Shown here piece by piece: positions 3,742-41,762 of a stretch of DNA of 64,000 nt. This DNA is from Escherichia phage Av-05: sequence record KM190144; one strand, written 5' to 3'. The position numbers were made by a program, and so were the translations under genes. The stretch's first letter is position 1; each line of letters opens with the position of its first letter. The notes under the pieces are model-generated. The model had not been told where the DNA came from, did no database searches, and was given only the letters and a program-made list of their open reading frames with translations.

Positions 3742-3817
3742 TGGTTGCGAGTATTGGGATCGAACCAATCTGGACTGGCTTATGAGACCAGCGAAGTCAC
3801 CAGACTTCAAACTCGCA
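3742..3817 (-). tRNA. tRNA-Met (anticodon CAU), CCA encoded
   Basis: Manual cloverleaf: acceptor TGCGAGT/ACTCGCA, anticodon loop CTCATAA, T-loop TTCGATC. Confidence 0.75.
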
Positions 3818-4067: not shown

Positions 4068-4143
4068 TGGTGTGACGGACAGGATTCGAACCTGTGACCA
4101 CCTAGTCTTCAGCAAGGCACTCTACCAACTGAGTTACCGTCAC
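4068..4143 (-). tRNA. tRNA-Phe (GAA), CCA encoded
   Basis: Acceptor GTGACGG/CCGTCAC, D-arm ACTC..GAGT, anticodon loop CTGAAGA, T-loop TTCGAAT. Confidence 0.8.
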
Positions 4144-4148
4144 ATGAT

Positions 4149-4225
4149 TGGTAGGCGATGAGGGACTCGAACCCCCAAAATTCAGGTTCTAAGCCTGACA
4201 TGTATACCAATTCCATCAATCGCCC
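4149..4225 (-). tRNA. tRNA with anticodon UAG (Leu codon family) but class I (short variable loop) architecture
   Basis: Acceptor GGGCGAT/ATCGCCT, anticodon stem TCAGG/CCTGA, loop CTTAGAA, 5-nt variable loop, T-loop TTCGAGT, discriminator A, CCA encoded. Confidence 0.6.
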
Positions 4226-4239
4226 ATCTATATTAACAG

Positions 4240-4431
4240 TTACGGTTTTCCGCGATACACAGAAATAGTTTTTCCATTGGCATTGATCACGTAGGCGGTC
4301 TGATCCTCAGACAAAAATACTTTTTGATCAACGCCGGAAATAGCTATAGACTTTTGATGAGCGCAATACCCAACAATTTTGCCACAAAAAATTTGTTCAT
4401 CATTTGGGGAGACTACTTTAACTGTTAACAT
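4240..4431 (-). CDS. Small hypothetical protein (about 64 aa)
   Basis: ORF track trimmed to internal ATG preceded by GAGGA; upstream part of track ORF overlaps tRNA-Pro. Confidence 0.3.
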   Translation of the reverse strand: MLTVKVVSPNDEQIFCGKIVGYCAHQKSIAISGVDQKVFLSEDQTAYVINANGKTISVYRGKP

Positions 4432-4473
4432 GGTATCCTCTGTACATTTCTGTTTTGATATGTATATGTTTGT

Positions 4474-4551
4474 TGGTCTGTCCGGTTGGATTTGAACCAA
4501 CGACCTGATCATCCCAAGTGACCCGCGCTACCCAAGCTGCGCTACGGACAG
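4474..4551 (-). tRNA. tRNA-Pro (UGG), CCA encoded
   Basis: Acceptor CTGTCCG/CGGACAG, D-stem GCGC, anticodon loop CTTGGGA, T-loop TTCAAAT. Confidence 0.8.
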
Positions 4552-4635
4552 AGAGATGTAGATTTTAATTGTCCCAGAATCTACAAACTGGTATCGCTGG
4601 CTAGGTGATATCTGTGACTTGATTAAGTCAAGAAT

Positions 4636-4726
4636 TGGCGGTTCCTGAAGGATTCGAACCTTCGGTGGGGAGATTCCTCCCAACGGCTTAACAGGCCGTC
4701 ACCATCGACCACTCGGTCAAAGAACC
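4636..4726 (-). tRNA. Class II (long variable arm) tRNA with anticodon GUU (Asn codons); identity ambiguous
   Basis: Acceptor GGTTCTT/AGGAACC, Ser-like D-arm ACC-GAGTGGTCGAT-GGT, anticodon stem ACGGC/GCCGT with loop CTGTTAA, 19-nt variable arm TGGGAGGAATCTCCCCACC, T-loop TTCGAAT, discriminator G, CCA encoded. Confidence 0.55.
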
Positions 4727-4735
4727 AGAATATTT

Positions 4736-4812
4736 TGGTGGATCTGGTTAGATTCGAACTAACAATCCCTCGATTAAAAGTCAAGTGCCTTAAACCATTT
4801 GGCTACAGATCC
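4736..4812 (-). tRNA. tRNA-Lys (UUU), CCA encoded
   Basis: Acceptor GGATCTG/CAGATCC, anticodon loop CTTTTAA, T-loop TTCGAAT. Confidence 0.8.
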
Positions 4813-5034
4813 TTTAAATTATCTTTAAAATAGCTAATTACTCGCACATAATTAGCTATACGCAACAGCCCTCTAGGGAGGGCACACTAATGATAGATTA
4901 CGATTACATGACCATCATGAGTGTTTGACTTACGCCAGTAAAGAGCGGACTGCTCTGGGGTATCGGTAAGATGGTTGCAGCCATCCACCGAAAAATCACA
5001 CCAAGCAACTAAACAAGCTACATTAAAGATAACT

Positions 5035-5123
5035 TGGAGGAGGCTGACAGAATCGAACTGTCACCATATCTCTACAGCGGGACTGGGTTCAAACCAGCTT
5101 GTGCACCATGCACCCCAGCCTCC
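5035..5123 (-). tRNA. tRNA-Ser (UGA), class II, CCA encoded
   Basis: Acceptor GGAGGCT/AGCCTCC, anticodon stem GCTGG/CCAGT loop TTTGAAC, long variable arm, T-loop TTCGATT. Confidence 0.65.
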
Positions 5124-5201
5124 AAAAATAGCCTCTGCCGAGAAGATACACCCAACAAAGACGGCGCTCAGGTCCGAAGAAATCTGAGCCTTGACATACA
5201 G

Positions 5202-5295
5202 TGGAGGAAGATGCCAGACTTGAACTGGCACACCCATTTCTGGGTTACTATCTCCTTAGCAGGGAGACCCCTTACCAAATTAGGGTTAATCTTCC
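5202..5295 (-). tRNA. tRNA-Ser (GCU), class II, CCA encoded
   Basis: Acceptor GGAAGAT/ATCTTCC, anticodon stem TCTCC/GGAGA loop CTGCTAA, long variable arm, T-loop TTCAAGT. Confidence 0.7.
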
Positions 5296-5316
5296 AATAC
5301 CTTAGTAATTAAAAAC

Positions 5317-5406
5317 TGGTGGAGAAGGAGAGAATCGAACTCTCAAGCCGTTTTACCAGTCAGCACATTTCCAATGTGGTTTCGTCGCCAATCGATTTGC
5401 TTCTCC
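5317..5406 (-). tRNA. tRNA-Ser (GGA) candidate, class II, CCA encoded
   Basis: Acceptor GGAGAAG/CTTCTCC, T-arm GAGAG-TTCGATT-CTCTC, anticodon loop TTGGAAA with one mismatch in stem; D-arm irregular. Confidence 0.5.
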
Positions 5407-5415
5407 GTTTTAACT

Positions 5416-5491
5416 TGGCAGGGGATGGTTGATTCGAACAACCGATCACGGGGTCAAAGCCCGTTGCATTAGGCCACTATGCTAATCCCCT
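5416..5491 (-). tRNA. tRNA-Gln (UUG), CCA encoded
   Basis: Acceptor AGGGGAT/ATCCCCT, D-stem GCAT/ATGC, anticodon stem ACGGG/CCCGT loop CTTTGAC, T-loop TTCGAAT. Confidence 0.8.
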
Positions 5492-5492
5492 T

Positions 5493-5574
5493 TGGCACGA
5501 GAGTGAGGAATCGAACCCCTTAGTCACTGGTTTTGGAGGCCAGCCTTCACCCAGTGAAGTTACGCTACTCTCAT
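5493..5574 (-). tRNA. tRNA-Trp (CCA) candidate with atypical, extended D-arm region
   Basis: Anticodon loop CTCCAAA followed by ACC as in E. coli tRNA-Trp; T-loop TTCGATT; acceptor ATGAGAG/CTCTCGT; 79 nt before CCA. Confidence 0.5.
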
Positions 5575-5597
5575 TAAAAACTATTTTCGGAATGGGT

Positions 5598-6140
5598 TTA
5601 TATATAAAACGCCAACATCACTCTTTCTCTTGAGAAAGCTCGGTCTTCAGGAACAACACTCTTCAGTTTCCAACCAACATAAATTCGCCAGTAAAATTGT
5701 TTTCCAAACAGTCTGAAAGACGGGACAAACGCGAATAAACCCCACGCATTGTCATTCCACATCAGCAAGTAGCCTTGTTGATTATCCTCCACATCAGAGC
5801 TTACATGGATGTTTCCTTTCCACTTTGTCACAGATGTAATTTCACGCCCAAGTGCGTGATAGGAGAAATTGTAGGCTTTATTTCTCCACAACCAAGCAAC
5901 TCGTTGCAGATAAACACCAAAACTCCCTATCTTGCGAACTTCTGCCCATCTCTCTATGTGTCCTTTATCACCATCTATAGGATTATCATATGTTTCCATC
6001 CACCTGAAAATATAAGGTAGATGCCCTGTCTTCTCATTATAGAACGGAACAACAAAAGGAGCCAGAATAACACAGAGAACCGACATAACTGGGTCAAGAG
6101 GTGCTAACAGAATCCACGATAAATATTTCAAGTATCTCAT
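5598..6140 (-). CDS. Hypothetical protein (180 aa, hydrophobic N-terminus) embedded in tRNA cluster
   Basis: ORF track; no recognisable motif. Confidence 0.45.
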   Translation of the reverse strand: MRYLKYLSWILLAPLDPVMSVLCVILAPFVVPFYNEKTGHLPYIFRWMETYDNPIDGDKGHIERWAEVRKIGSFGVYLQRVAWLWRNKAYNFSYHALGREITSVTKWKGNIHVSSDVEDNQQGYLLMWNDNAWGLFAFVPSFRLFGKQFYWRIYVGWKLKSVVPEDRAFSRERVMLAFYI

Positions 6141-6367
6141 GCAGGATCAAGCCTAGATATAATGTACTGGTTTAAATCTGAATATGGGAAGATACTTTCA
6201 AAGATAACCTGTTTAAATCTGAAACCGCACAAACCGAAAAGTACCTTCTGACACTCCCCAAAAGAACAATCTTTACCAACTTTTATCACAACCGTATCGG
6301 CAACCTGCACACTTTCTATCTCTTTAGGTTCATGATGCCGTACTATGATTACTTTAGAAACCATCAT
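6137..6367 (-). CDS. Hypothetical protein (76 aa)
   Basis: ORF track; 4-nt overlap with downstream ORF suggests coupling. Confidence 0.4.
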   Translation of the reverse strand: MMVSKVIIVRHHEPKEIESVQVADTVVIKVGKDCSFGECQKVLFGLCGFRFKQVIFESIFPYSDLNQYIISRLDPA

Positions 6368-6492
6368 ACTCGTCCGTATTAAAGCCTTCTACTAAAGATA
6401 GAAGATGTCTAGGGTTGGACCGCAAACTCAACCCCATGGAATTTGTTACGGTCTTCAGTTGACCCAAGCGGATTTCATTGACATCTTTTAGA

Positions 6493-6567
6493 TGGAGCAT
6501 CCAGAGGGTATCGAACCCTCGACTTCAGCTTGGAAGGCTGTAGTTTTCCCAATTAAACTATGGATGC
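6493..6567 (-). tRNA. tRNA-Gly (UCC), CCA encoded
   Basis: Acceptor GCATCCA/TGGATGC, D-stem GTTT/AAAC, anticodon loop CTTCCAA, T-loop TTCGATA. Confidence 0.75.
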
Positions 6568-6572
6568 ATATT

Positions 6573-6648
6573 TGGTGGGAGTGGTAGGCTCTGCCCCTAC
6601 GTCCTCTCGATTATCGGTCGAGCGATCTACTAACTGATCTACACTCCC
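6573..6648 (-). tRNA. tRNA-Ile (GAU)-like gene with non-canonical T-loop and C33
   Basis: Acceptor GGGAGTG/CACTCCC, D-arm GATC-AGTTAGTA-GATC, perfect anticodon stem CTCGA/TCGAG with loop CCGATAA, T-arm GTAGG-GGCAGAG-CCTAC lacks TTCGA, CCA encoded. Confidence 0.45.
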
Positions 6649-6716
6649 AAACTGTACTGGCCCAACAACCACGATTGGAGGGTATCGTCACACATCAAAG
6701 CCAGTACAGATTTAGT

Positions 6717-6806
6717 TGGTGTGCCGTGATAGAGTCGAACTACCCGAGTCCCTTTCGAGACAGGAGATTTACAGTCTCCCCCGCTACCCCTACGGTCTAA
6801 CGACAC
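6717..6806 (-). tRNA. tRNA-Tyr (GUA), class II, CCA encoded
   Basis: Acceptor GTGTCGT/ACGGCAC, anticodon stem GGAGA/TCTCC loop CTGTAAA, long variable arm, T-loop TTCGACT. Confidence 0.75.
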
Positions 6807-6807
6807 A

Positions 6808-7155
6808 TTAACCTTGTTTGAATTGAACAATATCCGTCGAGAACGGTTTAGCTGCCTTAATGGGAGCTTTTTCTGAGTTATCTTTTTCGAGTAACTCTTC
6901 GTTTTCCTCATCAAAGTAATCAGAAAGCATCTGCTCACCTTTCTCAATAACATAGCGAGCAATATTTTCTCTGATATTGTCTTTTGTATTCACATTCTTC
7001 ATCAAATCCCTAAGAACCTGATGAGCTTCAGGAATCATTGCAATCAGATTCGTTTTCAAATCTAGGATATTTTTCTCTAACTGAATTGCATTAGATTCCT
7101 CTTTCAGAGGACGACCTTTTCCTCTTCTACGTTTTGTAAGCTGCTTAGTAGCCAT
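6808..7155 (-). CDS. Hypothetical basic protein (about 116 aa; MATKQLTKRRRGKGRPLKE...)
   Basis: ORF track trimmed to ATG at 7155 downstream of a consensus promoter; the longer track ORF overlaps tRNA genes. Confidence 0.45.
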   Translation of the reverse strand: MATKQLTKRRRGKGRPLKEESNAIQLEKNILDLKTNLIAMIPEAHQVLRDLMKNVNTKDNIRENIARYVIEKGEQMLSDYFDEENEELLEKDNSEKAPIKAAKPFSTDIVQFKQG

Positions 7156-7174
7156 TTTAAAACCCCACTTAATG

Positions 7175-7203
7175 ATATTATCAAATAAAAACATATCTGT
7201 CAA
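7175..7203 (-). promoter_or_regulatory. Sigma70-like promoter (TTGACA-17-TAATAT)
   Basis: Minus strand -35 TTGACA at plus 7198-7203, 17-nt spacer, -10 TAATAT at plus 7175-7180. Confidence 0.6.
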
Positions 7204-7240
7204 GTGGTATTTTAACATATTTACCAAGAAATTGAAAGTT

Positions 7241-26092: not shown

Positions 26093-26284
26093 ATGGATGT
26101 ACCACAAGTTAGAAAGGTATTAGCAGCGTTACGCTATCACAATTATAGCAAGGTGAAGAATGATCCTGATTATGTTGATTCAAGCCTCGAGGAAGACACA
26201 TTGCAAGCCATAAGCTATATGCAGGAATTGCTTAAGCGTATGACAGAGAAGAATAGATCTGATTATATAGGTGAAGAGATTTAA
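26093..26284 (+). CDS. Hypothetical early protein (63 aa)
   Basis: ORF track; RBS AAAGGAG. Confidence 0.45.
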   Translation: MDVPQVRKVLAALRYHNYSKVKNDPDYVDSSLEEDTLQAISYMQELLKRMTEKNRSDYIGEEI

Positions 26285-26317
26285 TCTCTTACAACCGCAC
26301 AAAGTAAAATCGTACAA

Positions 26318-26344
26318 GGGGCGCATTAAGCGCCCTTTCTTTTT
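26318..26344 (+). terminator. Rho-independent terminator at end of early block
   Basis: GGGGCGC-ATTAA-GCGCCC followed by TTTCTTTTT. Confidence 0.6.
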
Positions 26345-26719
26345 GCCCCAGCAAGTATGATAAGTTTTATCTATCAAAACACCACACAGAACAAAAATGA
26401 ATAAAACGCGGTATCGAGCTAAACGAGGGTGGGCAATACAACGGCAAGGCTAAACACTTAAGGCCGTTACAACGCGATTTAGGCCGCTTAAAATCGATCT
26501 TTACTATAAACAACCTCCACAAAACGACCAAAACGACACAACATGACGTAAATGATAACCATTCTCAATAACATAAGAATTTTTATGCAATTTTAGTGAA
26601 TATCTATTTAAATGATAATGACTCTCAACAACAAACCAACACGACCGAAGCGATTTAATCGCCTATCACAAAATAAACCATTTGTAAAGAACAATTTAAA
26701 AGCTGCGTAGGTGGCGCGA

Positions 26720-26960
26720 CCGTAGGGAGCGACACAATAACGCAGTAGTAACCCCTCCCCCACTCCTTACAGTCGCCCGGTATCGGGGCAGCGTTATTGT
26801 GTCGCTACGCGACAACGCGTTAACAATTTTGCAAGATTTTATTAATAATTTAACTGTTATAATTCCACATAGTCGCTACGCGATTAAGCGCGATGCGCTT
26901 AACCTGCAAAGCAGGCTTCTTTGCAAAATTGTTAACCTACTGCGTTATTGTGTCCGGTAC
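26720..26960. repeat. Inverted and direct repeats built on GCGTTATTGTGTC / GTCGCTACGCGA
   Basis: AGCGACACAATAACGC (about 26729) vs GCGTTATTGTGTCGCT (about 26791), third copy at about 26941; GTCGCTACGCGA twice. Confidence 0.5.
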
Positions 26961-27837
26961 GGATTAGTTACATATGTAACTAACAACTAACGTTGCTAAA
27001 TTGTGTCCATGAATGGATGAGGAATAATATTCCTCCCAGCTATCGCTGCAATATTGTGTTGTAAAACGATTAGCTGAGAATCAGCTAACCCGTGAAACGG
27101 GCTAAATTATTCTCATTAATCCCCCGATTATTCCTCAGTAAATCACTTGTTTATCACGTTTAATCAGCCTGTTTAACAGGCCAGTAATGTGATGATCATT
27201 AACCACGATTATTGTTTGTATTATCCAGAATAAACCGCTTATCATGTTGTTATTATGTTGCCAAGTGCCTGAAATGCCAGATCAATTTGGTCACTGCGTG
27301 ATTATGATTGCGACAATAATTTGTTTGTGATTTGCATCTATTCATAACAAAATTGCTATTATGTTGCTATTCTATTGTTAAACACCCTTTTATCTTTTCC
27401 CTTGCATTTTCGTTATATTTGATTTGTTATCGTTTTCTTTCATTTTGTTTCGTTATTGAAAACAAGAATTATTATCATCTATGTGCCTTAACAGGCTGGC
27501 GGGTCTGTTAGTGGTCTGGTTGTCTGGCCTGTTATTGTTAGCTTGCTTATTGTTGTGTGGTGTATGTATCAGTTAGCTAGTACATTGTGTGGTGCGCATA
27601 ACGTGTATTATGTTAAATCAGGTGGCCCACAAGTAAGGCCGTATGTCAATAGCAATAAGTGCTGTGTGTGGTAGGACTGGCCTATCAGTGTGCCCCTTTG
27701 TTGTGTGATGCTCTCAGTGTGTGACCTGTCTGCTGTGTGCGCTGCGTCAAATCTCGAGCGGTTCTCGATCGCAATAGCTGTAAGATATTTTGTAAAGATT
27801 CGTAGTTTTTCTTGACACCCGCAATCGTCCGTCTAAC

Positions 27838-27893
27838 CCTTCAGAGATAGATCCTTCAGAGATTTATCTGGGCTTTTTACCCTTCAGAGATAG
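27838..27893. repeat. Three tandem copies of CCTTCAGAGAT(A/T)
   Basis: CCCTTCAGAGATAGAT, CCTTCAGAGATTTAT, CCCTTCAGAGATAGAT read directly. Confidence 0.55.
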
Positions 27894-28201
27894 ATACATG
27901 GCAAATTCGCACAAATTTACCACCTGCCATGCCACGTCACTAATCTCGCAAGGATATTTCTGTAAGTGAACCTGCACACAATGCAGCACGCATCTTGTTG
28001 TGTGGGGAGGGTGGGGGTAATAATCAGGAACTGGTCTGACAGTGATAACGCATTGGATAAAACTCTGCGGGGCTTGGTGATGATATTTGTGTGGGTAGAT
28101 GATGATGGATAAGAGATAAGACACTTGTCTCCGACAGGGGTGGGGTGTGGAAAAGAAATGGGCCTGTTGACCCATTGCGATATAGAAATGAAATGGTTAT
28201 C

Positions 28202-33753: not shown

Positions 33754-34036
33754 TCAAAGACCTCGTCTCTTCAAACTGCTCTGGTGTCAATAAACTTGTT
33801 CCTACACGACTGCCATTACCACACATAATGGGCACGGCAATCATGTGGCTATCCTTTTCTGCATTACTTAAATCAAGGTACTGCCCATAACGTTTAATAA
33901 GTCGATGTTTCATTTTTGACTTAGCAAAAGCCCTCTCATTATAGAGATAATCCTCAAGGTACAAATGCATTGCGTTTGCGGATTTTAAGGATTTCGATAA
34001 GAATAATTTATTACGCCGTACCAGTTTTTTCTTCAT
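33731..34036 (-). CDS. Hypothetical protein (101 aa), paralog pair member
   Basis: ORF track; shared N-terminal motif with 33433-33753. Confidence 0.45.
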   Translation of the reverse strand: MKKKLVRRNKLFLSKSLKSANAMHLYLEDYLYNERAFAKSKMKHRLIKRYGQYLDLSNAEKDSHMIAVPIMCGNGSRVGTSLLTPEQFEETRSLSEKEDYS

Positions 34037-34229
34037 GCAACCCTCGCTTGTGCCTGTACATTGCTAAGGGCCATACAGAACTCACTATAAAGCATTTCCA
34101 TGCCCAGCCCCATGCAGTTTTTGGTGCATATACCTGCTCAAGTATTTTACTATTCTCCATCTCTGCGGTATGTACAAACCATACAGCAATATACAATGTA
34201 ACTATAATGTAGATAAAGCCATTAATCAT
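34011..34229 (-). CDS. Small membrane protein (72 aa)
   Basis: ORF track; hydrophobic N-terminal half. Confidence 0.35.
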   Translation of the reverse strand: MINGFIYIIVTLYIAVWFVHTAEMENSKILEQVYAPKTAWGWAWKCFIVSSVWPLAMYRHKRGLHEEKTGTA

Positions 34230-35283
34230 TCATCTTATCCCAGCACATTTGTTGCGCTGTCATCAAAACATCGGCAGCAAAGTTAAGATCTGTTGTCTTC
34301 GGTAAATGCGTGTTCTTGTACAGAGTGTTACGAATATAATCATCCTTCTCTTCTGCCCAAGCCAAGAGCTTCTCCAAAGACCATGCACCATTCCTGATTG
34401 CAAGAAGCTCCTGAGCATCAGGTCTTTTTACTAAGACTTTACCTTCTGCTAAGATCTCCTCAGCCATACGCATCAATCTTACCAAATGGAGGGCATGTTT
34501 GCAATCGTACCCGTACTTTTCTTCTAACTCATGCCGGACCGGATTTCTGTTTTCAACCCATGCCCAGTAGTTCTTATGCTTTTCCTTCGCTTGTTTATGG
34601 TCATCTGCCAGATATTTAACGATTAAAATTGGCTTACGTTTCTTATCCTCGTCAGAGAACTGCTCGTATGGAACTTTACGAATAGAACCATCAGAGTTAA
34701 ACAAACCAGCGTTGTCATGTGTACCAATCACACCATAGATATTATCACCCATCGGCAAAAAGACACACAACTTATTAAGGTCATCCAGCATTTTCTGGAA
34801 GTCTTTATGTTTTGTAAGATTATCATCCATCCACGAGTGTGTCAAGCGCATGAACTCTTTTTGTGTTGGTTGCTCTTTAGGTTGCGGGTTATTAATCCAT
34901 TTATTATGGCCTTTGATACGCTTAAGTTGCGCCATCGCGTACCCAGAAAATGTAAAAGCAACTTTGCTTGATAGAAGTTTTGGCGCTTGCTCGCGTAGGT
35001 ACTCGTAAACATCTGAAGTTTGCAGAATGTCACCTCTATCAACAAACATAAGCTCGATAATGTTTGGGTTCATATCAACGAACAGCTTCATATAGTTTGT
35101 TAGCTCATACAGCTTACCATCCTCTTCATCAATAAGAGTCATCTCCCTGTCAACGAAAAATGGGGTAAGAATGCTTTTAGGCTCTGCACAATAAATTCCG
35201 CGAATATCCACATCGGATGTTGGCAAGTTAGTTCCATAGGCAATACTGCCGGAGTAACAACGCATTAGTTCTAGTTTCTTCAT
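34222..35283 (-). CDS. Nucleotidyltransferase-fold (Pol-beta superfamily) protein (353 aa)
   Basis: Classic motif GSIAYGTNLPTSDVDIRGIY (GSx(9-13)DhDh) at N-terminus, helical C-terminal domain. Confidence 0.6.
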   Translation of the reverse strand: MKKLELMRCYSGSIAYGTNLPTSDVDIRGIYCAEPKSILTPFFVDREMTLIDEEDGKLYELTNYMKLFVDMNPNIIELMFVDRGDILQTSDVYEYLREQAPKLLSSKVAFTFSGYAMAQLKRIKGHNKWINNPQPKEQPTQKEFMRLTHSWMDDNLTKHKDFQKMLDDLNKLCVFLPMGDNIYGVIGTHDNAGLFNSDGSIRKVPYEQFSDEDKKRKPILIVKYLADDHKQAKEKHKNYWAWVENRNPVRHELEEKYGYDCKHALHLVRLMRMAEEILAEGKVLVKRPDAQELLAIRNGAWSLEKLLAWAEEKDDYIRNTLYKNTHLPKTTDLNFAADVLMTAQQMCWDKMND

Positions 35284-35660
35284 TGTTGTACCTTTTTGTC
35301 TTTTCTTGCATTATCCCAAAAATTAAGGATATTTTGGTAACGGATTTTGTCTTCCATATATTCAGCTTCATCACGAAGACCACATACATGGTCTATTAAG
35401 GCACATACTTCATTATGGTATTCTGTGCCACTCGTGATGTGTTTAATCATACAAGATCCTGCTTTCCATTTCGAGAGGGAGTATCTCAGATTATCATCTT
35501 TTTCTGTGGGGAAAGCATCAACAAGCACCTTTGCTCTATTCCCTTGTATCGTTTGCACTGTTCCTCGGCGCAGTTCGTTATTACCCCAATAGATAAATAC
35601 TGTATCGCCAACAAATAATCTTGTTCCGCTTGCATCCCTCATTTTATGCCCCCAACACAA
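35280..35660 (-). CDS. Hypothetical protein (126 aa)
   Basis: ORF track. Confidence 0.45.
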   Translation of the reverse strand: MCWGHKMRDASGTRLFVGDTVFIYWGNNELRRGTVQTIQGNRAKVLVDAFPTEKDDNLRYSLSKWKAGSCMIKHITSGTEYHNEVCALIDHVCGLRDEAEYMEDKIRYQNILNFWDNARKDKKVQQ

Positions 35661-35988
35661 AGAAATAATGAACTGTTACCGCTGCAAAGTAAAGCGTTTT
35701 GGAAATCAATCGTAGCCAGCAATCTCTGTTTGTATACACTTTTCCTGCTAAGATATTACTCCCTGTTACGATATTTCCCCACAGCCACACAACAAACAAG
35801 AATGCTCCGAGCAAACCACTTGTCGGTGGTGTTAATGTAGTAATCATCGCAATACCTTCGAGGGTGGCGAATATGAAGAAGTATGGAAATGCCTCCCTTA
35901 CACATTTTATTCCTTTGCCAGTAATGCAGGTATTAACTAAACCTATAAGACAAAATATCGTCCAAAGCACATACAATGTATAAACCAT
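35644..35988 (-). CDS. Membrane protein (114 aa, multiple TM)
   Basis: ORF track; hydrophobic. Confidence 0.45.
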   Translation of the reverse strand: MVYTLYVLWTIFCLIGLVNTCITGKGIKCVREAFPYFFIFATLEGIAMITTLTPPTSGLLGAFLFVVWLWGNIVTGSNILAGKVYTNRDCWLRLISKTLYFAAVTVHYFFVLGA

Positions 35989-36053
35989 AATCCACTTAAC
36001 CCCAAAAATGTTAACCTCTCCAAACCTATCAGAGAGGTTTCAAAAATAATCTA

Positions 36054-36551
36054 CTACTCACCTTTTAGCTTAAAACTTTTCAATGTTTTGATAAAGTCTT
36101 TCTCCGCTGGTGTGTAAGTGTGTACGAAACCTGTCTCTTCGCAGGTGTAGGTATCATTAACCTCCATTGCGTGTGGAGGGATAAATGCACCATCAGGAAC
36201 AGACTTATATTCCGGGTTGTAGATAAATTCCGGCAGCACAACAGCTACAGCAGTCATTGCCCCATTCAAGGCTTTCTTTTCTTCACGCCACCAAGCCACA
36301 GGGTAGGTTTGTAAAGACATTGCCTGATCAAGAAAATCTTCAAGCACGGACTGATAACCACCATTCAAAACAATAATGGTCTTATCTTCTTCTTTCCAGC
36401 ATTTCAGCCAATGGTGTGCAGTGATCTGCTCTGGTGTATATGCTTCACCACTATGCAAAACCATAAGCTCTGCAATGGCGTGTGCTGATTGGATACCTGC
36501 ATGGATACCGCAGATATACTGGTTAACAATACAATACATTCTTGTTTTCAT
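36054..36551 (-). CDS. Hypothetical protein (165 aa) with weak PTH2-type peptidyl-tRNA hydrolase-like N-terminal motif
   Basis: MYCIVNQ..GIHAGIQSAHAIAEL loosely resembles PTH2 signature (hhVVR.DL.MG.GKIAAQ.SHAA); assignment tentative. Confidence 0.35.
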   Translation of the reverse strand: MKTRMYCIVNQYICGIHAGIQSAHAIAELMVLHSGEAYTPEQITAHHWLKCWKEEDKTIIVLNGGYQSVLEDFLDQAMSLQTYPVAWWREEKKALNGAMTAVAVVLPEFIYNPEYKSVPDGAFIPPHAMEVNDTYTCEETGFVHTYTPAEKDFIKTLKSFKLKGE

Positions 36552-36766
36552 TTTTGTTTCTTCCTCAAAATTATCCGTTCAGGACTGAAAAATTCTTTCA
36601 AACACAGGAAGATGGCTAATGCGCCACCCAACCACCAAAAAGGTATCAACAGCAAAGCAGGTATTAAGTCCTCTCCTGTGATACAATCCTGTGTTTTATA
36701 GGTCATGGTAAGAAATACACCTGCTGCTACTATCCCAGCAACCACATACAAGATCAGTTCAATCAT
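36548..36766 (-). CDS. Small membrane protein (72 aa)
   Basis: ORF track; two TM segments. Confidence 0.4.
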   Translation of the reverse strand: MIELILYVVAGIVAAGVFLTMTYKTQDCITGEDLIPALLLIPFWWLGGALAIFLCLKEFFSPERIILRKKQK

Positions 36767-37079
36767 TATCCCGTTTCTCCAGAAACGCTTTCACCGCAAG
36801 AGCCGCAGCGTAAATTGCCACAAGACAAATACAAAATGTGAAAATAATAGGTAAAACCATTACCGCAAACATCATAAACAGTGGTCCTGCAACAGTAACG
36901 AATGCTGTTCCAAGCAACAATAGAAATACCACATATTTATCTGCCGTCTCATCCACCTTCTTAAGATACACACCTAAACACACAGAAGACAACAGGAATG
37001 ACAGAATGGACAGCAATAGATACCAATTATCAATAAAGATGATAATTGGACCAGCAACATTTTCTAGCCACCACATCAT
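36759..37079 (-). CDS. Membrane protein (106 aa)
   Basis: ORF track; three hydrophobic segments. Confidence 0.4.
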   Translation of the reverse strand: MMWWLENVAGPIIIFIDNWYLLLSILSFLLSSVCLGVYLKKVDETADKYVVFLLLLGTAFVTVAGPLFMMFAVMVLPIIFTFCICLVAIYAAALAVKAFLEKRDND

Positions 37080-37093
37080 ATATACTTACCTCT

Positions 37094-38338
37094 TTAGAAT
37101 AACATATCTCTGCTGATTGCTTTACGAATAGCATCAATACGGGCTACTCGCACAGCCTCACCAATCTCTTTACCCTTCTTACCTTTTTCCAGAAGGGGTT
37201 TTGTTATAGCTTTAGAATCAACTTTTGTCATAGCGTCGTAGGCTTCCAACAAAATATGACCCTGAGGATAAGGTTTATGTCTAAAATCACCACCTCTCCC
37301 TTTAGCATCACAATAACACGCATCTGCAAGTGTGTAAACCTTTATTTTCTGATCAGCTTGTCCAGCAGCTTCAAATATTTTCATGATGCTTTTTGGTTTC
37401 AAACCGTTGTTACCATCTTTGGGGGAGATGGCGTGCACTTTTGTGTGATTTTCCGCAACATATTTTGCCGTGTCACGATAGATATTATAAATCTTCAACC
37501 TTTCACACAAGGATTGGATAACATCTACACCAGCTTTTTCATGACCATGAAGATTACCATTGTCCTTATGAGTCACAGCTTTGCCAAAATCATGGCACAG
37601 CACAGCAAACTTGGTCAGTGGATCAGCTCCTAATTCATCAGCAACCCGTAACGCTAGAATTGTATGGGTGTAAGCATCCCCTTCTGGGTGATGTTCTTTA
37701 GGTTGTTGCACACCACGTAGGGCTTCCAGTTCAGGGAGTTCGCCAATACGTCCCATATTGACAGCAAAAGATCTGAAATAACCACTCTTTAAGGCTTTCA
37801 ACATTTCCTTCCATTTACGCTCGGCGCTTATTTCTGCCAAAGAGTGTCGGTTGTCATAAGCCAGTTTAAAAGTTTCTGGATGGATATGCCATTCTTCCCC
37901 AAGCTGGGCTTTAAATCTAAACAGGCGTAGAATACGTAATGGATCTTCAATAAATGCCTGTGATGTATGACGTAATGTTTTAAGTCCTAAGTCAACCTGA
38001 CCACCAAAAGGATCTATAATTTCACCACTCTCAACATCCATCGCCATGGAATTGATGGTTAGGTCTCTACGTGCCAAATCCTCTTCCAGAGTTACATCTG
38101 GACTAAAGCATACCTCAAATCCTTTATGGCCTTCACCTGTTTTTCTTTCTGTGCGTGCAAGAGCGTACTCTTCTCTTGTTTCTGGGTGAAGATAAACTGG
38201 AAAAGATGCGCCAACTTGTGTGAACCCTCTTTTCAACATCTCTTCATGCGTAGCACCAACAACCACATAATCACGGTCTGATATTTCACGACCTAACAAT
38301 TTATCTCTTACTGCGCCACCTACCAAGTATACCTTCAT
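37094..38338 (-). CDS. cca: CCA-adding enzyme (class II tRNA nucleotidyltransferase with HD phosphohydrolase domain)
   Basis: N-terminus MKVYLVGGAVRD...DRDYVVVG...RDLTINSMA matches bacterial Cca head domain; HD-type motif LCHDFGK; start at ATG overlapping upstream stop (ATGA). Confidence 0.85.
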   Translation of the reverse strand: MKVYLVGGAVRDKLLGREISDRDYVVVGATHEEMLKRGFTQVGASFPVYLHPETREEYALARTERKTGEGHKGFEVCFSPDVTLEEDLARRDLTINSMAMDVESGEIIDPFGGQVDLGLKTLRHTSQAFIEDPLRILRLFRFKAQLGEEWHIHPETFKLAYDNRHSLAEISAERKWKEMLKALKSGYFRSFAVNMGRIGELPELEALRGVQQPKEHHPEGDAYTHTILALRVADELGADPLTKFAVLCHDFGKAVTHKDNGNLHGHEKAGVDVIQSLCERLKIYNIYRDTAKYVAENHTKVHAISPKDGNNGLKPKSIMKIFEAAGQADQKIKVYTLADACYCDAKGRGGDFRHKPYPQGHILLEAYDAMTKVDSKAITKPLLEKGKKGKEIGEAVRVARIDAIRKAISRDMLF

Positions 38339-38607
38339 TTCTTCGCCCACGTATTCATATAATTAACAATATCTTTTACGGCTCTCTTTCCGTCTAGTGG
38401 ATAAACTATGTCATCGCTCATCCCACCGTGTTTTAGCATTGCTACCAGTCTAGTATATACCTCTTTTGGTCTTTTGCAAGTTCTTTTCTTCCATTTATGA
38501 CCGTCTGGGGAGTACTCCTTATCTTCAAGAGAGATATGAAGTATATCCCCTATAAACTCTTTAGCCTGTGTGCTGTAAAGTGGACGGTGGAATATGTAGA
38601 ATTTCAT
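38335..38607 (-). CDS. Hypothetical protein (about 91 aa) translationally coupled to cca
   Basis: Track ORF trimmed to ATG after AGGAGCAAGCA. Confidence 0.45.
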   Translation of the reverse strand: MKFYIFHRPLYSTQAKEFIGDILHISLEDKEYSPDGHKWKKRTCKRPKEVYTRLVAMLKHGGMSDDIVYPLDGKRAVKDIVNYMNTWAKK

Positions 38608-38696
38608 TGCTTGCTCCTTTGTTGTAATAACAATATCAGTGCAAGCCACCTGTGTCAACACATAAAGAAAAACCCGCTAAAAAGCGGGTTAATCTC

Positions 38697-40902: not shown

Positions 40903-41211
40903 CTACCTAGCAATTAGATATTGTATCTTTCCGTCATCTTCCTGATACCCAACATCTACAACATAGTATTCCCCAACATCAGGAATCAACAACTTATCCC
41001 CAACCTCGTACTCTTTTGCGGTATGGTATACCATTGATTCTGTAAAATATTTGTACTTATCCATATCGTTAATGTTGCATGAGATTTCCATTTCTCCGTT
41101 GTTGTTGGGTATGAGAATATCCTCACCATTCTTTTTCCCAACCACATAACCACCTACCAATGTTTTAACTAAGCACAGTGTTTTATTGAGTTTGTCTTGG
41201 AACTTTGGCAA
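40903..41211 (-). CDS. Hypothetical protein (102 aa)
   Basis: ORF track. Confidence 0.45.
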   Translation of the reverse strand: MPKFQDKLNKTLCLVKTLVGGYVVGKKNGEDILIPNNNGEMEISCNINDMDKYKYFTESMVYHTAKEYEVGDKLLIPDVGEYYVVDVGYQEDDGKIQYLIAR

Positions 41212-41728
41212 AAGAATCCTCCATTTTGTCCAGGAATGTTTCCAGGAGTTTTATTCTTTCTGGTGTGTTAAGATTAAGTGTTTTAATCCCTTTCATCTTA
41301 GCAAGATTGACAGCAGTAGCCGTGCCGCCTCTTGGATTGCCATTCTTATCTTCTTTTGCAAAGTAGAGCACAAAGGAAGATGGCTTTGGGTTGTTAATAT
41401 TCACTCCCAACACTTGATGCACATTCCTAGAATGCAACGCAAATGCTGATCTGTTTCTCAACAATGCTTGTGGGTTTGGATGCACCTTTTGCACCAACTC
41501 ATCTCGATATTCTATTTGGTCGATATATAGATGGTTAATATATTGTAAGGCATAATCCCAGTTATCGTACAAACCCACTTCTTTATCACCAAAACCTTTC
41601 CATGGTATGTAGATTTCTGCGAGTCTGTTACCATACAACATTTTGGTTTTATCGTCAAGGCCATCGAAATATCGCTGCATCCCTCTCTGGAACGCTGCAT
41701 CGGCTCCTTCTGCCTTACCGCTCCGCAA
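41183..41728 (-). CDS. DprA/Smf-like (SLOG-type Rossmann) protein, tentative
   Basis: N-terminal SGKAEGADAAFQRG resembles the GxAxGxDxxAHxGA nucleotide-binding signature. Confidence 0.35.
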   Translation of the reverse strand: MRSGKAEGADAAFQRGMQRYFDGLDDKTKMLYGNRLAEIYIPWKGFGDKEVGLYDNWDYALQYINHLYIDQIEYRDELVQKVHPNPQALLRNRSAFALHSRNVHQVLGVNINNPKPSSFVLYFAKEDKNGNPRGGTATAVNLAKMKGIKTLNLNTPERIKLLETFLDKMEDSFAKVPRQTQ

Positions 41729-41762
41729 TGTAAACCCTATTTTTTTTTCAAGGAGTTAAGCA

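Follow-up and report, generated by a model that had tools for sequence, protein, structure and literature searches.

Three genes on the minus strand of Escherichia phage Av-05 encode a CCA-adding enzyme (Cca; 37094-38338, 414 aa from its ATG), a protein resembling the peptidyl-tRNA hydrolase PTH2 (the PTH2-like protein; 36054-36551, 165 aa, phrog_3668) and a nucleotidyltransferase (NTase) of the RlaP family (34222-35283, 353 aa), where positions are those of the 64,000-nucleotide stretch of sequence record KM190144 that was analysed (the window). Comparison of gene order among phages indicates that Cca, PTH2-like and RlaP, in this order, constitute a conserved core whose linkage is real and recurrent. 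The best explanation for this core is, in our judgement and with moderate confidence, that the trio of Cca, PTH2-fold hydrolase and RlaP services damaged tRNA, and a role in counter-defence, which we infer, is plausible. The open reading frames (ORFs) of this module had been called in a sequence-only reading of the window; their existence and coordinates were confirmed, all of them on the minus strand, and every profile and fold check was concordant with those calls. Exact protein matching, carried out for the three enzymes and a DUF7205 protein encoded between them, identified the corresponding Av-05 entries, whose annotation is already in RefSeq, as AII27611.1 ('tRNA nucleotidyltransferase'), AII27608.1 ('hydrolase'), AII27606.1 ('hypothetical protein Av05_0063') and AII27605.1 ('nucleotidyltransferase').

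Among the Vequintavirinae, to which Av-05 belongs, the order Cca ... PTH2-like ... DUF7205-RlaP is invariant (SSE121, CR8, Iguana_ER37 and the IMG/VR loci L010-L018), while protein identities are 40-70% and the number and kind of the small ORFs in between vary; the order of the trio is kept at Cca identities as low as about 44%. Rheinheimera phage Barba19A (Barbavirus, 84.6 kb) possesses strictly contiguous genes for Cca (419 aa), PTH2-like (143 aa) and RlaP (322 aa), whose junctions are a 4-nt overlap and a 9-nt gap. The three genes are also contiguous on an IMG/VR contig of 94.9 kb (L035), in which RlaP is apparently interrupted by a GIY-YIG/NUMOD3 homing endonuclease, and on another IMG/VR contig (L029) Cca is directly followed by the PTH2-like gene. 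Barba19A, L035 and L029 have only 1.5-1.8 kb of 20 kb in common (tblastx, E<1e-10), an amount that corresponds in size to the cassette. Because such a tight cassette recurs in phages with otherwise unrelated flanks, we consider the trio to be functionally linked; altogether, the PTH2-like gene is found immediately beside Cca in four genomic backgrounds. The neighbours of the PTH2-like gene were also scanned in 26 non-redundant loci outside Vequintavirinae (127 proteins, counted without a formal null) and are rich in RNA-end-processing families, the commonest Pfam families being Metallophos (9), PolyA_pol, RlaP and ATP-dependent/RNA ligase (3 each) and AAA_33 kinase and HD_4 (2 each).

Two further observations concern these loci. 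On L035 (10417-12244), the GIY-YIG/NUMOD3 endonuclease follows an N-terminal RlaP fragment of 173 aa and apparently splits the gene. On four RaK2/GAP32-like jumbo contigs of 355-371 kb (L041, L044, L049 and L051), a Metallophos phosphoesterase (259 aa) is encoded upstream of the PTH2-like gene and an unknown protein of about 410 aa and a 472-aa ATP-dependent ligase are encoded downstream of it, a context that is different but also repair-flavoured.

The Cca of Av-05 matches the Pfam models of the PolyA_pol head (PF01743, 8.8e-22), PolyA_pol_RNAbd (1.3e-06) and HD (PF01966, 1.6e-08, residues 227-348), as well as phrog_2244 (2.5e-144). Its head contains motif A (GGAVRD at residue 7 and DRD at residues 21-23), motif B (RRD at 90) and motif D (EDPLR at 131), the latter two of which we take to be the nucleotide-selecting protein template, and its HD motif is H216-H217...H249-D250. 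The class II CCA-adding enzyme with an HD domain that had been proposed from the sequence was thus recovered with its head, RNA-binding and HD domains and with motifs A, B and D. Against the NCBIfam model NF008137 ('multifunctional CCA addition/repair protein'), Cca scores 424.5 bits over profile positions 1-404 of 409, whereas the models of the poly(A) polymerase PcnB score far lower, at 82 and 54 bits; the comparison favours Cca specificity, and CCA addition is the predicted activity. The Cca of E. coli is known for both CCA addition and a 2',3'-cyclic phosphodiesterase/phosphatase repair activity, and by analogy the Av-05 enzyme likely combines the two. Relatives of this Cca are present in 504 phage records.

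The AlphaFold2 model of the PTH2-like protein, built from 38 homologues, has a pLDDT of 95 and a pTM of 0.89, and its top fold match, aligned over 112 of 118 residues, is a bona fide PTH2. Among viral models (BFVD), the Foldseek matches include phage and giant-virus proteins that carry a peptidyl-tRNA hydrolase annotation. The PTH2 alpha/beta fold of this protein, for which only a PTH2-like motif had been noticed before, is therefore confirmed at the level of the model, although its Pfam score is below threshold. Searches of PDB sequences with the protein and with its family profile returned nothing meaningful, and none of 90 homologues has a precomputed Pfam domain. Searched against 1.84 billion representatives, the family profile found 2,455 clusters (at 50% identity) with E<=1e-3, of which 467 reach E<=1e-30, and the members are mostly stand-alone proteins of 130-200 aa. 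Across 227 aligned members, G19, Q21, H24, G65, E90 and T100 are invariant, while Y6, Y12, W52, K57 (98%), T58 and P107 are conserved in at least 98%. By motif register, Q21..H24-A25 would correspond to the AQxxHA motif of PTH2, and a Glu would stand where PTH2 has an Asp, the catalytic triad being K18, D86 and T90 in the PTH2 of S. solfataricus; the catalytic residues are placed by motif register only, because hhalign of the family alignment with a human PTRH2 sequence gave no alignment. A C-terminal extension of about 55 aa has no counterpart in PTH2. We conclude that the PTH2-like protein is a PTH2-fold member of a separate, very large phage family that is distinct from canonical PTH2 and that may plausibly still hydrolyse esters on tRNA. 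Some public records already name members of this family 'peptidyl-tRNA hydrolase' or 'hydrolase'.

The third protein of the trio matches RlaP (PF10127, 'RNA repair pathway DNA polymerase beta family') with 5.4e-13 and 49.6 bits, relative to a cut-off of 23, and phrog_388 with 5e-77, and it contains the N-terminal NTase motif GS...DVD in the form of 'YSGSIAYGTNLPTSDVDIRG'. The PF10127 profile covers only the N-terminal ~120 aa of the protein. The Pol-beta-type nucleotidyltransferase of the sequence-only reading is thereby borne out and assigned to the RNA-repair-associated RlaP family. A search of PDB sequences with RlaP returned nothing meaningful, and the protein is weakly similar to the T4-type NrdC.11. 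A 2025 preprint reports that the RlaPs of Pseudomonas put one or two nucleoside monophosphates on RNA 3'-OH ends and are needed to restore the aminoacylation of over-trimmed tRNA, and it names T4 NrdC.11 as a member of the RlaP family (PMC12776372).

The tRNA genes of the window bear on what the phage Cca is for. An array of 15 confident tRNA genes, of which 14 were found by ARAGORN and one (6648-6573) by Rfam, is located at 4068-9659 on the minus strand, together with four tRNA-like elements below threshold on the same strand (3747-3816, 5496-5574, 7394-7479 and 7680-7777). The 19-tRNA repertoire that had been described as near the module is thus reached only when these four elements are added, and 24.5 kb separate the array from the module; the array belongs to a different gene block, beside terminase and NAD-salvage genes. 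CCA directly follows the discriminator base in all 15 confident tRNA genes and in two of the four weak elements. Some tRNA genes of T4 have no encoded CCA, and a maturation role of the phage Cca on such genes was considered for Av-05 and rejected, given that 15 of 15 confident genes encode CCA. With the most obvious ordinary explanation of a phage Cca removed in this way, the enzyme is expected to serve repair or end turnover rather than tRNA maturation. The phage tRNAs are likely substrates of the module despite having no physical linkage to it.

Several individual tRNA genes are unusual. The tRNA with an Asn anticodon GUU (4636-4726, minus strand) is 91 nt long, has G73 and, owing to its long and base-paired variable arm, is of class II shape; in bacteria, this class normally comprises the tRNAs for Leu, Ser and Tyr, and its charging identity is therefore ambiguous. 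The Rfam-only tRNA at 6573-6648 (minus strand), with anticodon GAU, has an atypical T-loop. The two sub-threshold elements with an encoded CCA have anticodons readable as CCA (Trp) and UCU (Arg), while the other two are without CCA. The published note on Av-05 counts only 9 tRNAs.

Based on family knowledge, from which all of its steps are derived, we propose the following mechanism. The PTH2-like hydrolase would remove ester-linked peptidyl or acyl-aminoacyl groups from damaged or stalled tRNAs, by which the terminal ribose would be freed and the tRNA recycled, and the HD domain of Cca would clear the 2',3'-cyclic, 2'- or 3'-phosphates left by nucleases. RlaP would replace one or two trimmed nucleotides at an anticodon-loop break, for sealing by phage RNA ligases, or might alternatively act at the acceptor end if the discriminator base is lost, and the head domain of Cca would remake the CCA end. 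The net effect would be that host and phage tRNAs stay chargeable in infection, most plausibly under attack by host tRNA-directed nucleases or toxins. tRNAs are a major target of bacterial immunity, as exemplified by PrrC, RloC, PARIS, retron-linked nucleases and Cas12a3. Searches of the literature brought up no experiments that test a phage Cca or PTH2 in defence evasion. The earlier suggestion that the locus replenishes or repairs tRNA 3' ends agrees with a Cca that fits repair (CCA being encoded in 15 of 15 confident tRNA genes) and with the linkage of the trio, but it may not extend to RlaP, which may act at anticodon breaks.

A number of results weigh against the proposal that the trio services damaged tRNA. 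The 424.5 bits of Cca are below the NF008137 equivalog cut-off of 451 bits, with coverage still at full length. The PTH2-like protein is under the cut-off of 23 for Pfam PTH2 (PF01981; E=0.0016, 19.1 bits), and at the position of the catalytic Lys, as placed by motif register, 148 of 227 members have His17 and 75 of 227 have Gln; both make its substrate uncertain. Pseudomonas RlaP favours the 3' end left by a break in the anticodon loop over that of the native acceptor (PMC12776372). This preference weakens a reading confined to 3' tails and suggests, by analogy, that RlaP may not work on tRNA tails but together with RNA ligases from other loci. The 30 larger ORFs of the 64-kb window that were scanned outside the module lack any domain of an RNA ligase or a polynucleotide kinase. 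Barba19A and the Vequintavirinae also have in common a wider order, PhoH-ClpP-methyltransferase...Cca, so that inherited synteny may account for some of the conservation. Jumbo phages also have all three genes, but tens of kb apart, and most PTH2-like loci are without Cca or RlaP nearby. These last observations on synteny, dispersal and missing neighbours, as well as the four other ORFs and a possible terminator that separate the three genes in Av-05, are what would be seen if no functional module existed and the trio were independent early genes in an inherited order, with RlaP working with distant ligases, Cca working alone and the PTH2-like protein being unrelated to tRNA. We regard this as improbable, because the trio is strictly contiguous in Barba19A and L035, as are two of its genes in L029, with unrelated flanks, and because the order survives the divergence of Cca described above. 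The missed Pfam cut-off, the empty PDB sequence searches, the His or Gln at the presumed catalytic Lys and the C-terminal extension would likewise suit a PTH2-fold protein that is not a peptidyl-tRNA hydrolase and hydrolyses or binds another ligand, like PTH2-fold families whose function is unknown, such as Atu0240. That the best fold match is a bona fide PTH2 aligned over nearly its full length, that the Q..HA motif is invariant and accompanied by conserved K57, E90 and T100, that Cca directly adjoins the gene in four genomic backgrounds and that the BFVD fold matches include annotated peptidyl-tRNA hydrolases of phages and giant viruses lead us to consider a different ligand unlikely.

A broader rival holds that the trio is for translation housekeeping and not for counter-defence: about 15-19 tRNAs and high translation would raise both 3'-end turnover (by RNase T, RNase PH and PNPase) and peptidyl-tRNA drop-off, and RlaP would be a general RNA-end tidy-up enzyme. 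The tRNA genes of E. coli encode CCA, and Cca serves end turnover there; the Cca of Av-05 is of the E. coli end-repair type and its tRNA genes all encode CCA as well, unrelated early genes are also in the operon, and tRNA nucleotidyltransferase, peptidyl-tRNA hydrolase and many tRNA genes have repeatedly been reported together in large phages. Cca and Pth, however, are already supplied by the host, the documented preference of RlaP is for nuclease-damaged RNA, the genes next to PTH2-like in other loci encode RNA-repair enzymes and not translation factors, and the lineage also has the classic kit against ribotoxins, consisting of Rnl1, a kinase and a phosphoesterase. Housekeeping is accordingly a tentative alternative, to which we give distinctly less credence than an even chance would warrant. 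In a bolder version of the repair proposal, the trio would be a dedicated, horizontally portable 'tRNA tail repair' cassette against immune effectors that attack 3' ends, in which the PTH2-like protein would deacylate damaged or blocked acceptor ends, RlaP would restore the discriminator base and Cca would clean the end and rebuild CCA; its targets would be Cas12a3-type tail cleavage, acceptor-stem tRNases and tail-extending or tail-modifying toxins. The immune nuclease Cas12a3 takes 2-4 nt off tRNA tails up to the discriminator base (PMC12851939). Action of RlaP at the acceptor end would suit such tail-clipping nucleases, whereas action at anticodon breaks would involve the distant ligases, and we consider a dedicated tail-repair cassette doubtful.

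The distribution of RNA ligases in relatives of Av-05 is relevant to the favoured reading, that of a trio servicing damaged tRNA. The nearest record in the phage collection and closest complete relative, vB_EcoM_TH18 (Vequintavirinae; 90.6% nucleotide identity across the region), has at about 128.8-133.3 kb of its record a separate RNA-repair cluster (L009) of a Metallophos phosphoesterase, a small ORF, an Rnl1-type ligase (PF09511), cREC_REC, an AAA_33 kinase, Sir2 and a DNA ligase, and in addition an Rnl2-type ligase with a Macro-domain protein nearby (L007, 7591-9675). A Klebsiella relative likewise has two RNA ligases, and in relatives RlaP is separated from the Rnl1-like and Rnl2-like genes by tens of kb. 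Thus, the lineage has a heal-and-seal kit in one place and an 'accessory' Cca-PTH2-like-RlaP set in another, and the two may cooperate. An arrangement of RlaP next to a ligase was rejected for the Av-05 locus itself, given that there is no ligase in the scanned ORFs of the window; with kinase/phosphatase and ligase absent from both locus and window, the locus is not a T4-type heal-and-seal system.

The trio is embedded in a region of the window (~28 to 41.7 kb) in which every gene is on the minus strand. The genes of the module are tightly packed, with overlaps of 4-8 nt and with hairpins at the bounds, and we read them as belonging to a leftward operon of early/middle genes. A terminator-like hairpin at 38690-38671 (AACCCGC-TTTTT-AGCGGGTT followed by a T-run) and the best promoter-like site of the region at 38658-38630 (TTGACA-17-TATTGT), both recognized by consensus match only, probably mark the start of a transcription unit. 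They precede an AGGAG Shine-Dalgarno sequence upstream of the ATG at 38607, from which p90 is read (38335-38607, 90 aa, or 108 aa from the upstream GTG at 38661; phrog_7526). The cca gene follows with an ATGA 4-nt overlap with the stop of p90, so that the previously proposed translational coupling of cca to a small gene is real. After a gap of 14 nt come the genes of a 106-aa membrane protein with three hydrophobic segments (36759-37079) and, overlapping it by 8 nt, of a 72-aa membrane protein with two (36548-36766, phrog_14512), the stop of which shares 4 nt with the start of the PTH2-like gene. The 65-nt gap 3' of the PTH2-like gene contains a terminator-like hairpin with an 11-bp stem (36013-36039) and, overlapping it, a weak promoter-like site (36014-35987), which together may be a boundary between two transcription units. 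The first gene past this gap encodes a 114-aa membrane protein (35644-35988, phrog_16835) and is separated by 1 nt from that of the DUF7205 protein (35280-35642, 120 aa, PF23835), the stop of which overlaps RlaP by 4 nt; p72 (34011-34229, 72 aa, phrog_11850), which has a single hydrophobic segment at its N-terminus, shares 8 nt with the end of RlaP. All of these features are on the minus strand. The numbers of promoter and terminator sites in the region are not above those of shuffled controls, and the two hairpins are given weight because they are placed in the only two sizeable intergenic gaps of the region.

Most of these small genes are not shared by the compact cassettes. The three small ORFs at 36759-37079, 36548-36766 and 35644-35988 have two or three hydrophobic segments each, and two of them match PHROG 'membrane protein' families; the small membrane proteins of the sequence-only reading are therefore present, but their membership in the module did not stand. 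Membrane proteins, DUF7205 and p90 are all absent from the compact Cca-PTH2-like-RlaP cassettes, and in Klebsiella and Salmonella relatives the p90 homologue is 0.9-2.2 kb from cca, i.e., not adjacent, so that p90 is not a conserved partner of cca; for these reasons, the membrane proteins and p90 were rejected as parts of the module. The 72-aa membrane gene is also upstream of the PTH2-like gene in some Klebsiella-phage relatives, the 106-aa membrane protein is probably a lineage-specific insert, and p72 is conserved after RlaP in relatives. DUF7205 is always coupled to RlaP in Vequintavirinae, and we read it as a companion of RlaP specific to this group. Its structural model is weak (pLDDT 66.9, 5 usable homologues) and consists of a small N-terminal beta-barrel followed by two helices, for which the KOW/Tudor-like matches can be taken as a hint only. 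Like DUF7205 and p72, the membrane proteins and p90 look like passengers specific to the lineage, or accessories at most.

Elsewhere in the window, the sequence is collinear with TH18 66148-107833 up to position 41739, and from 41740 on it resumes at TH18 58383, now running in the opposite orientation. A DprA-like ORF (41183-41680) is truncated by this junction, and tail and structural genes directly follow the early genes there. The Av-05 genome is a 120.9-kb de novo assembly from 36-nt reads, while its relatives are 134-148 kb, and a misassembly or an inversion at 41739/41740 is likely. A 1.7-kb segment at 26284-28024, on which plus- and minus-strand gene blocks converge, has no ORF of at least 50 aa, and can be aligned to TH18 only in part. 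Within it are three perfect inverted repeats (16-18 nt, 26728-26954) and a 17-nt direct repeat in three copies (27836-27895). Beside the tRNA array (10571-13159, minus strand) are genes for a nicotinamide/nicotinate phosphoribosyltransferase-family protein (571 aa) and a ribose-phosphate pyrophosphokinase (269 aa), a pair that resembles the NAD-salvage sets for which a counter-action against NAD-depleting defences is reported; relatives of Av-05 also encode NMN adenylyltransferase, PnuC and Sir2.

To the best of our knowledge, Pnkp and Rnl1 of T4 are the only phage answer to tRNA damage by repair that has been established by experiment. The general idea of tRNA repair is not new, as RlaP, CCA-adding enzyme and PTH2 have already been grouped as an RNA-repair set of jumbo phages (Iyer, Anantharaman, Krishnan, Burroughs and Aravind, 2021; PMC7824862). 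What is new here is the occurrence of the trio as a compact cassette in several mid-sized phages that are not related, the placement of the PTH2-like protein in a large uncurated family with altered putative catalytic residues, and the encoding of CCA by all confident tRNA genes of the phage. As three small clonable genes with clear predictions, the compact cassette makes tRNA end repair as a counter-defence directly testable, and a very large phage-specific PTH2-fold family without a curated model is brought to attention. If tail repair were true, it would be a class of counter-defence distinct from the anticodon-loop repair of T4; if the trio were for housekeeping, it would still explain why large phages whose tRNA genes all encode CCA have a Cca of their own.

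In comparison with known systems, the Cca of Av-05 is collinear over its full length with the multifunctional Cca of E. coli and has the same head motifs and HD motif, while it differs in being phage-encoded and in scoring under the equivalog cut-off. Relative to the PTH2 of archaea and eukaryotes (PF01981, e.g., 1wn2 of P. horikoshii), the Av-05 protein differs in its sub-threshold Pfam score, in its His or Gln for the presumed catalytic Lys and Glu for Asp, as placed by motif register, and in having an extra C-terminal segment of about 55 aa and a family of its own. The RlaP family owes its name to a genomic association with RNA ligase. The Av-05 protein shares with this family (PF10127) a Pfam match above the cut-off and the NTase motif; its gene, however, sits downstream of Cca and the PTH2-like hydrolase and not beside an RNA ligase, and in Vequintavirinae it is translationally coupled to that of the DUF7205 protein. 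The RNA-repair repertoire of jumbo phages lists the same RlaP, CCA-adding enzyme and PTH2 together (Iyer et al., 2021), whereas the Av-05 lineage, at about 121-148 kb, is not jumbo. Finally, the Av-05 trio would follow the same logic as Pnkp and Rnl1 of T4 against the anticodon nuclease PrrC, namely phage enzymes that restore ribotoxin-damaged tRNAs, but the Av-05 locus differs in that it would hold only the 'accessory' steps of deacylation, nucleotide restoration and CCA rebuilding.

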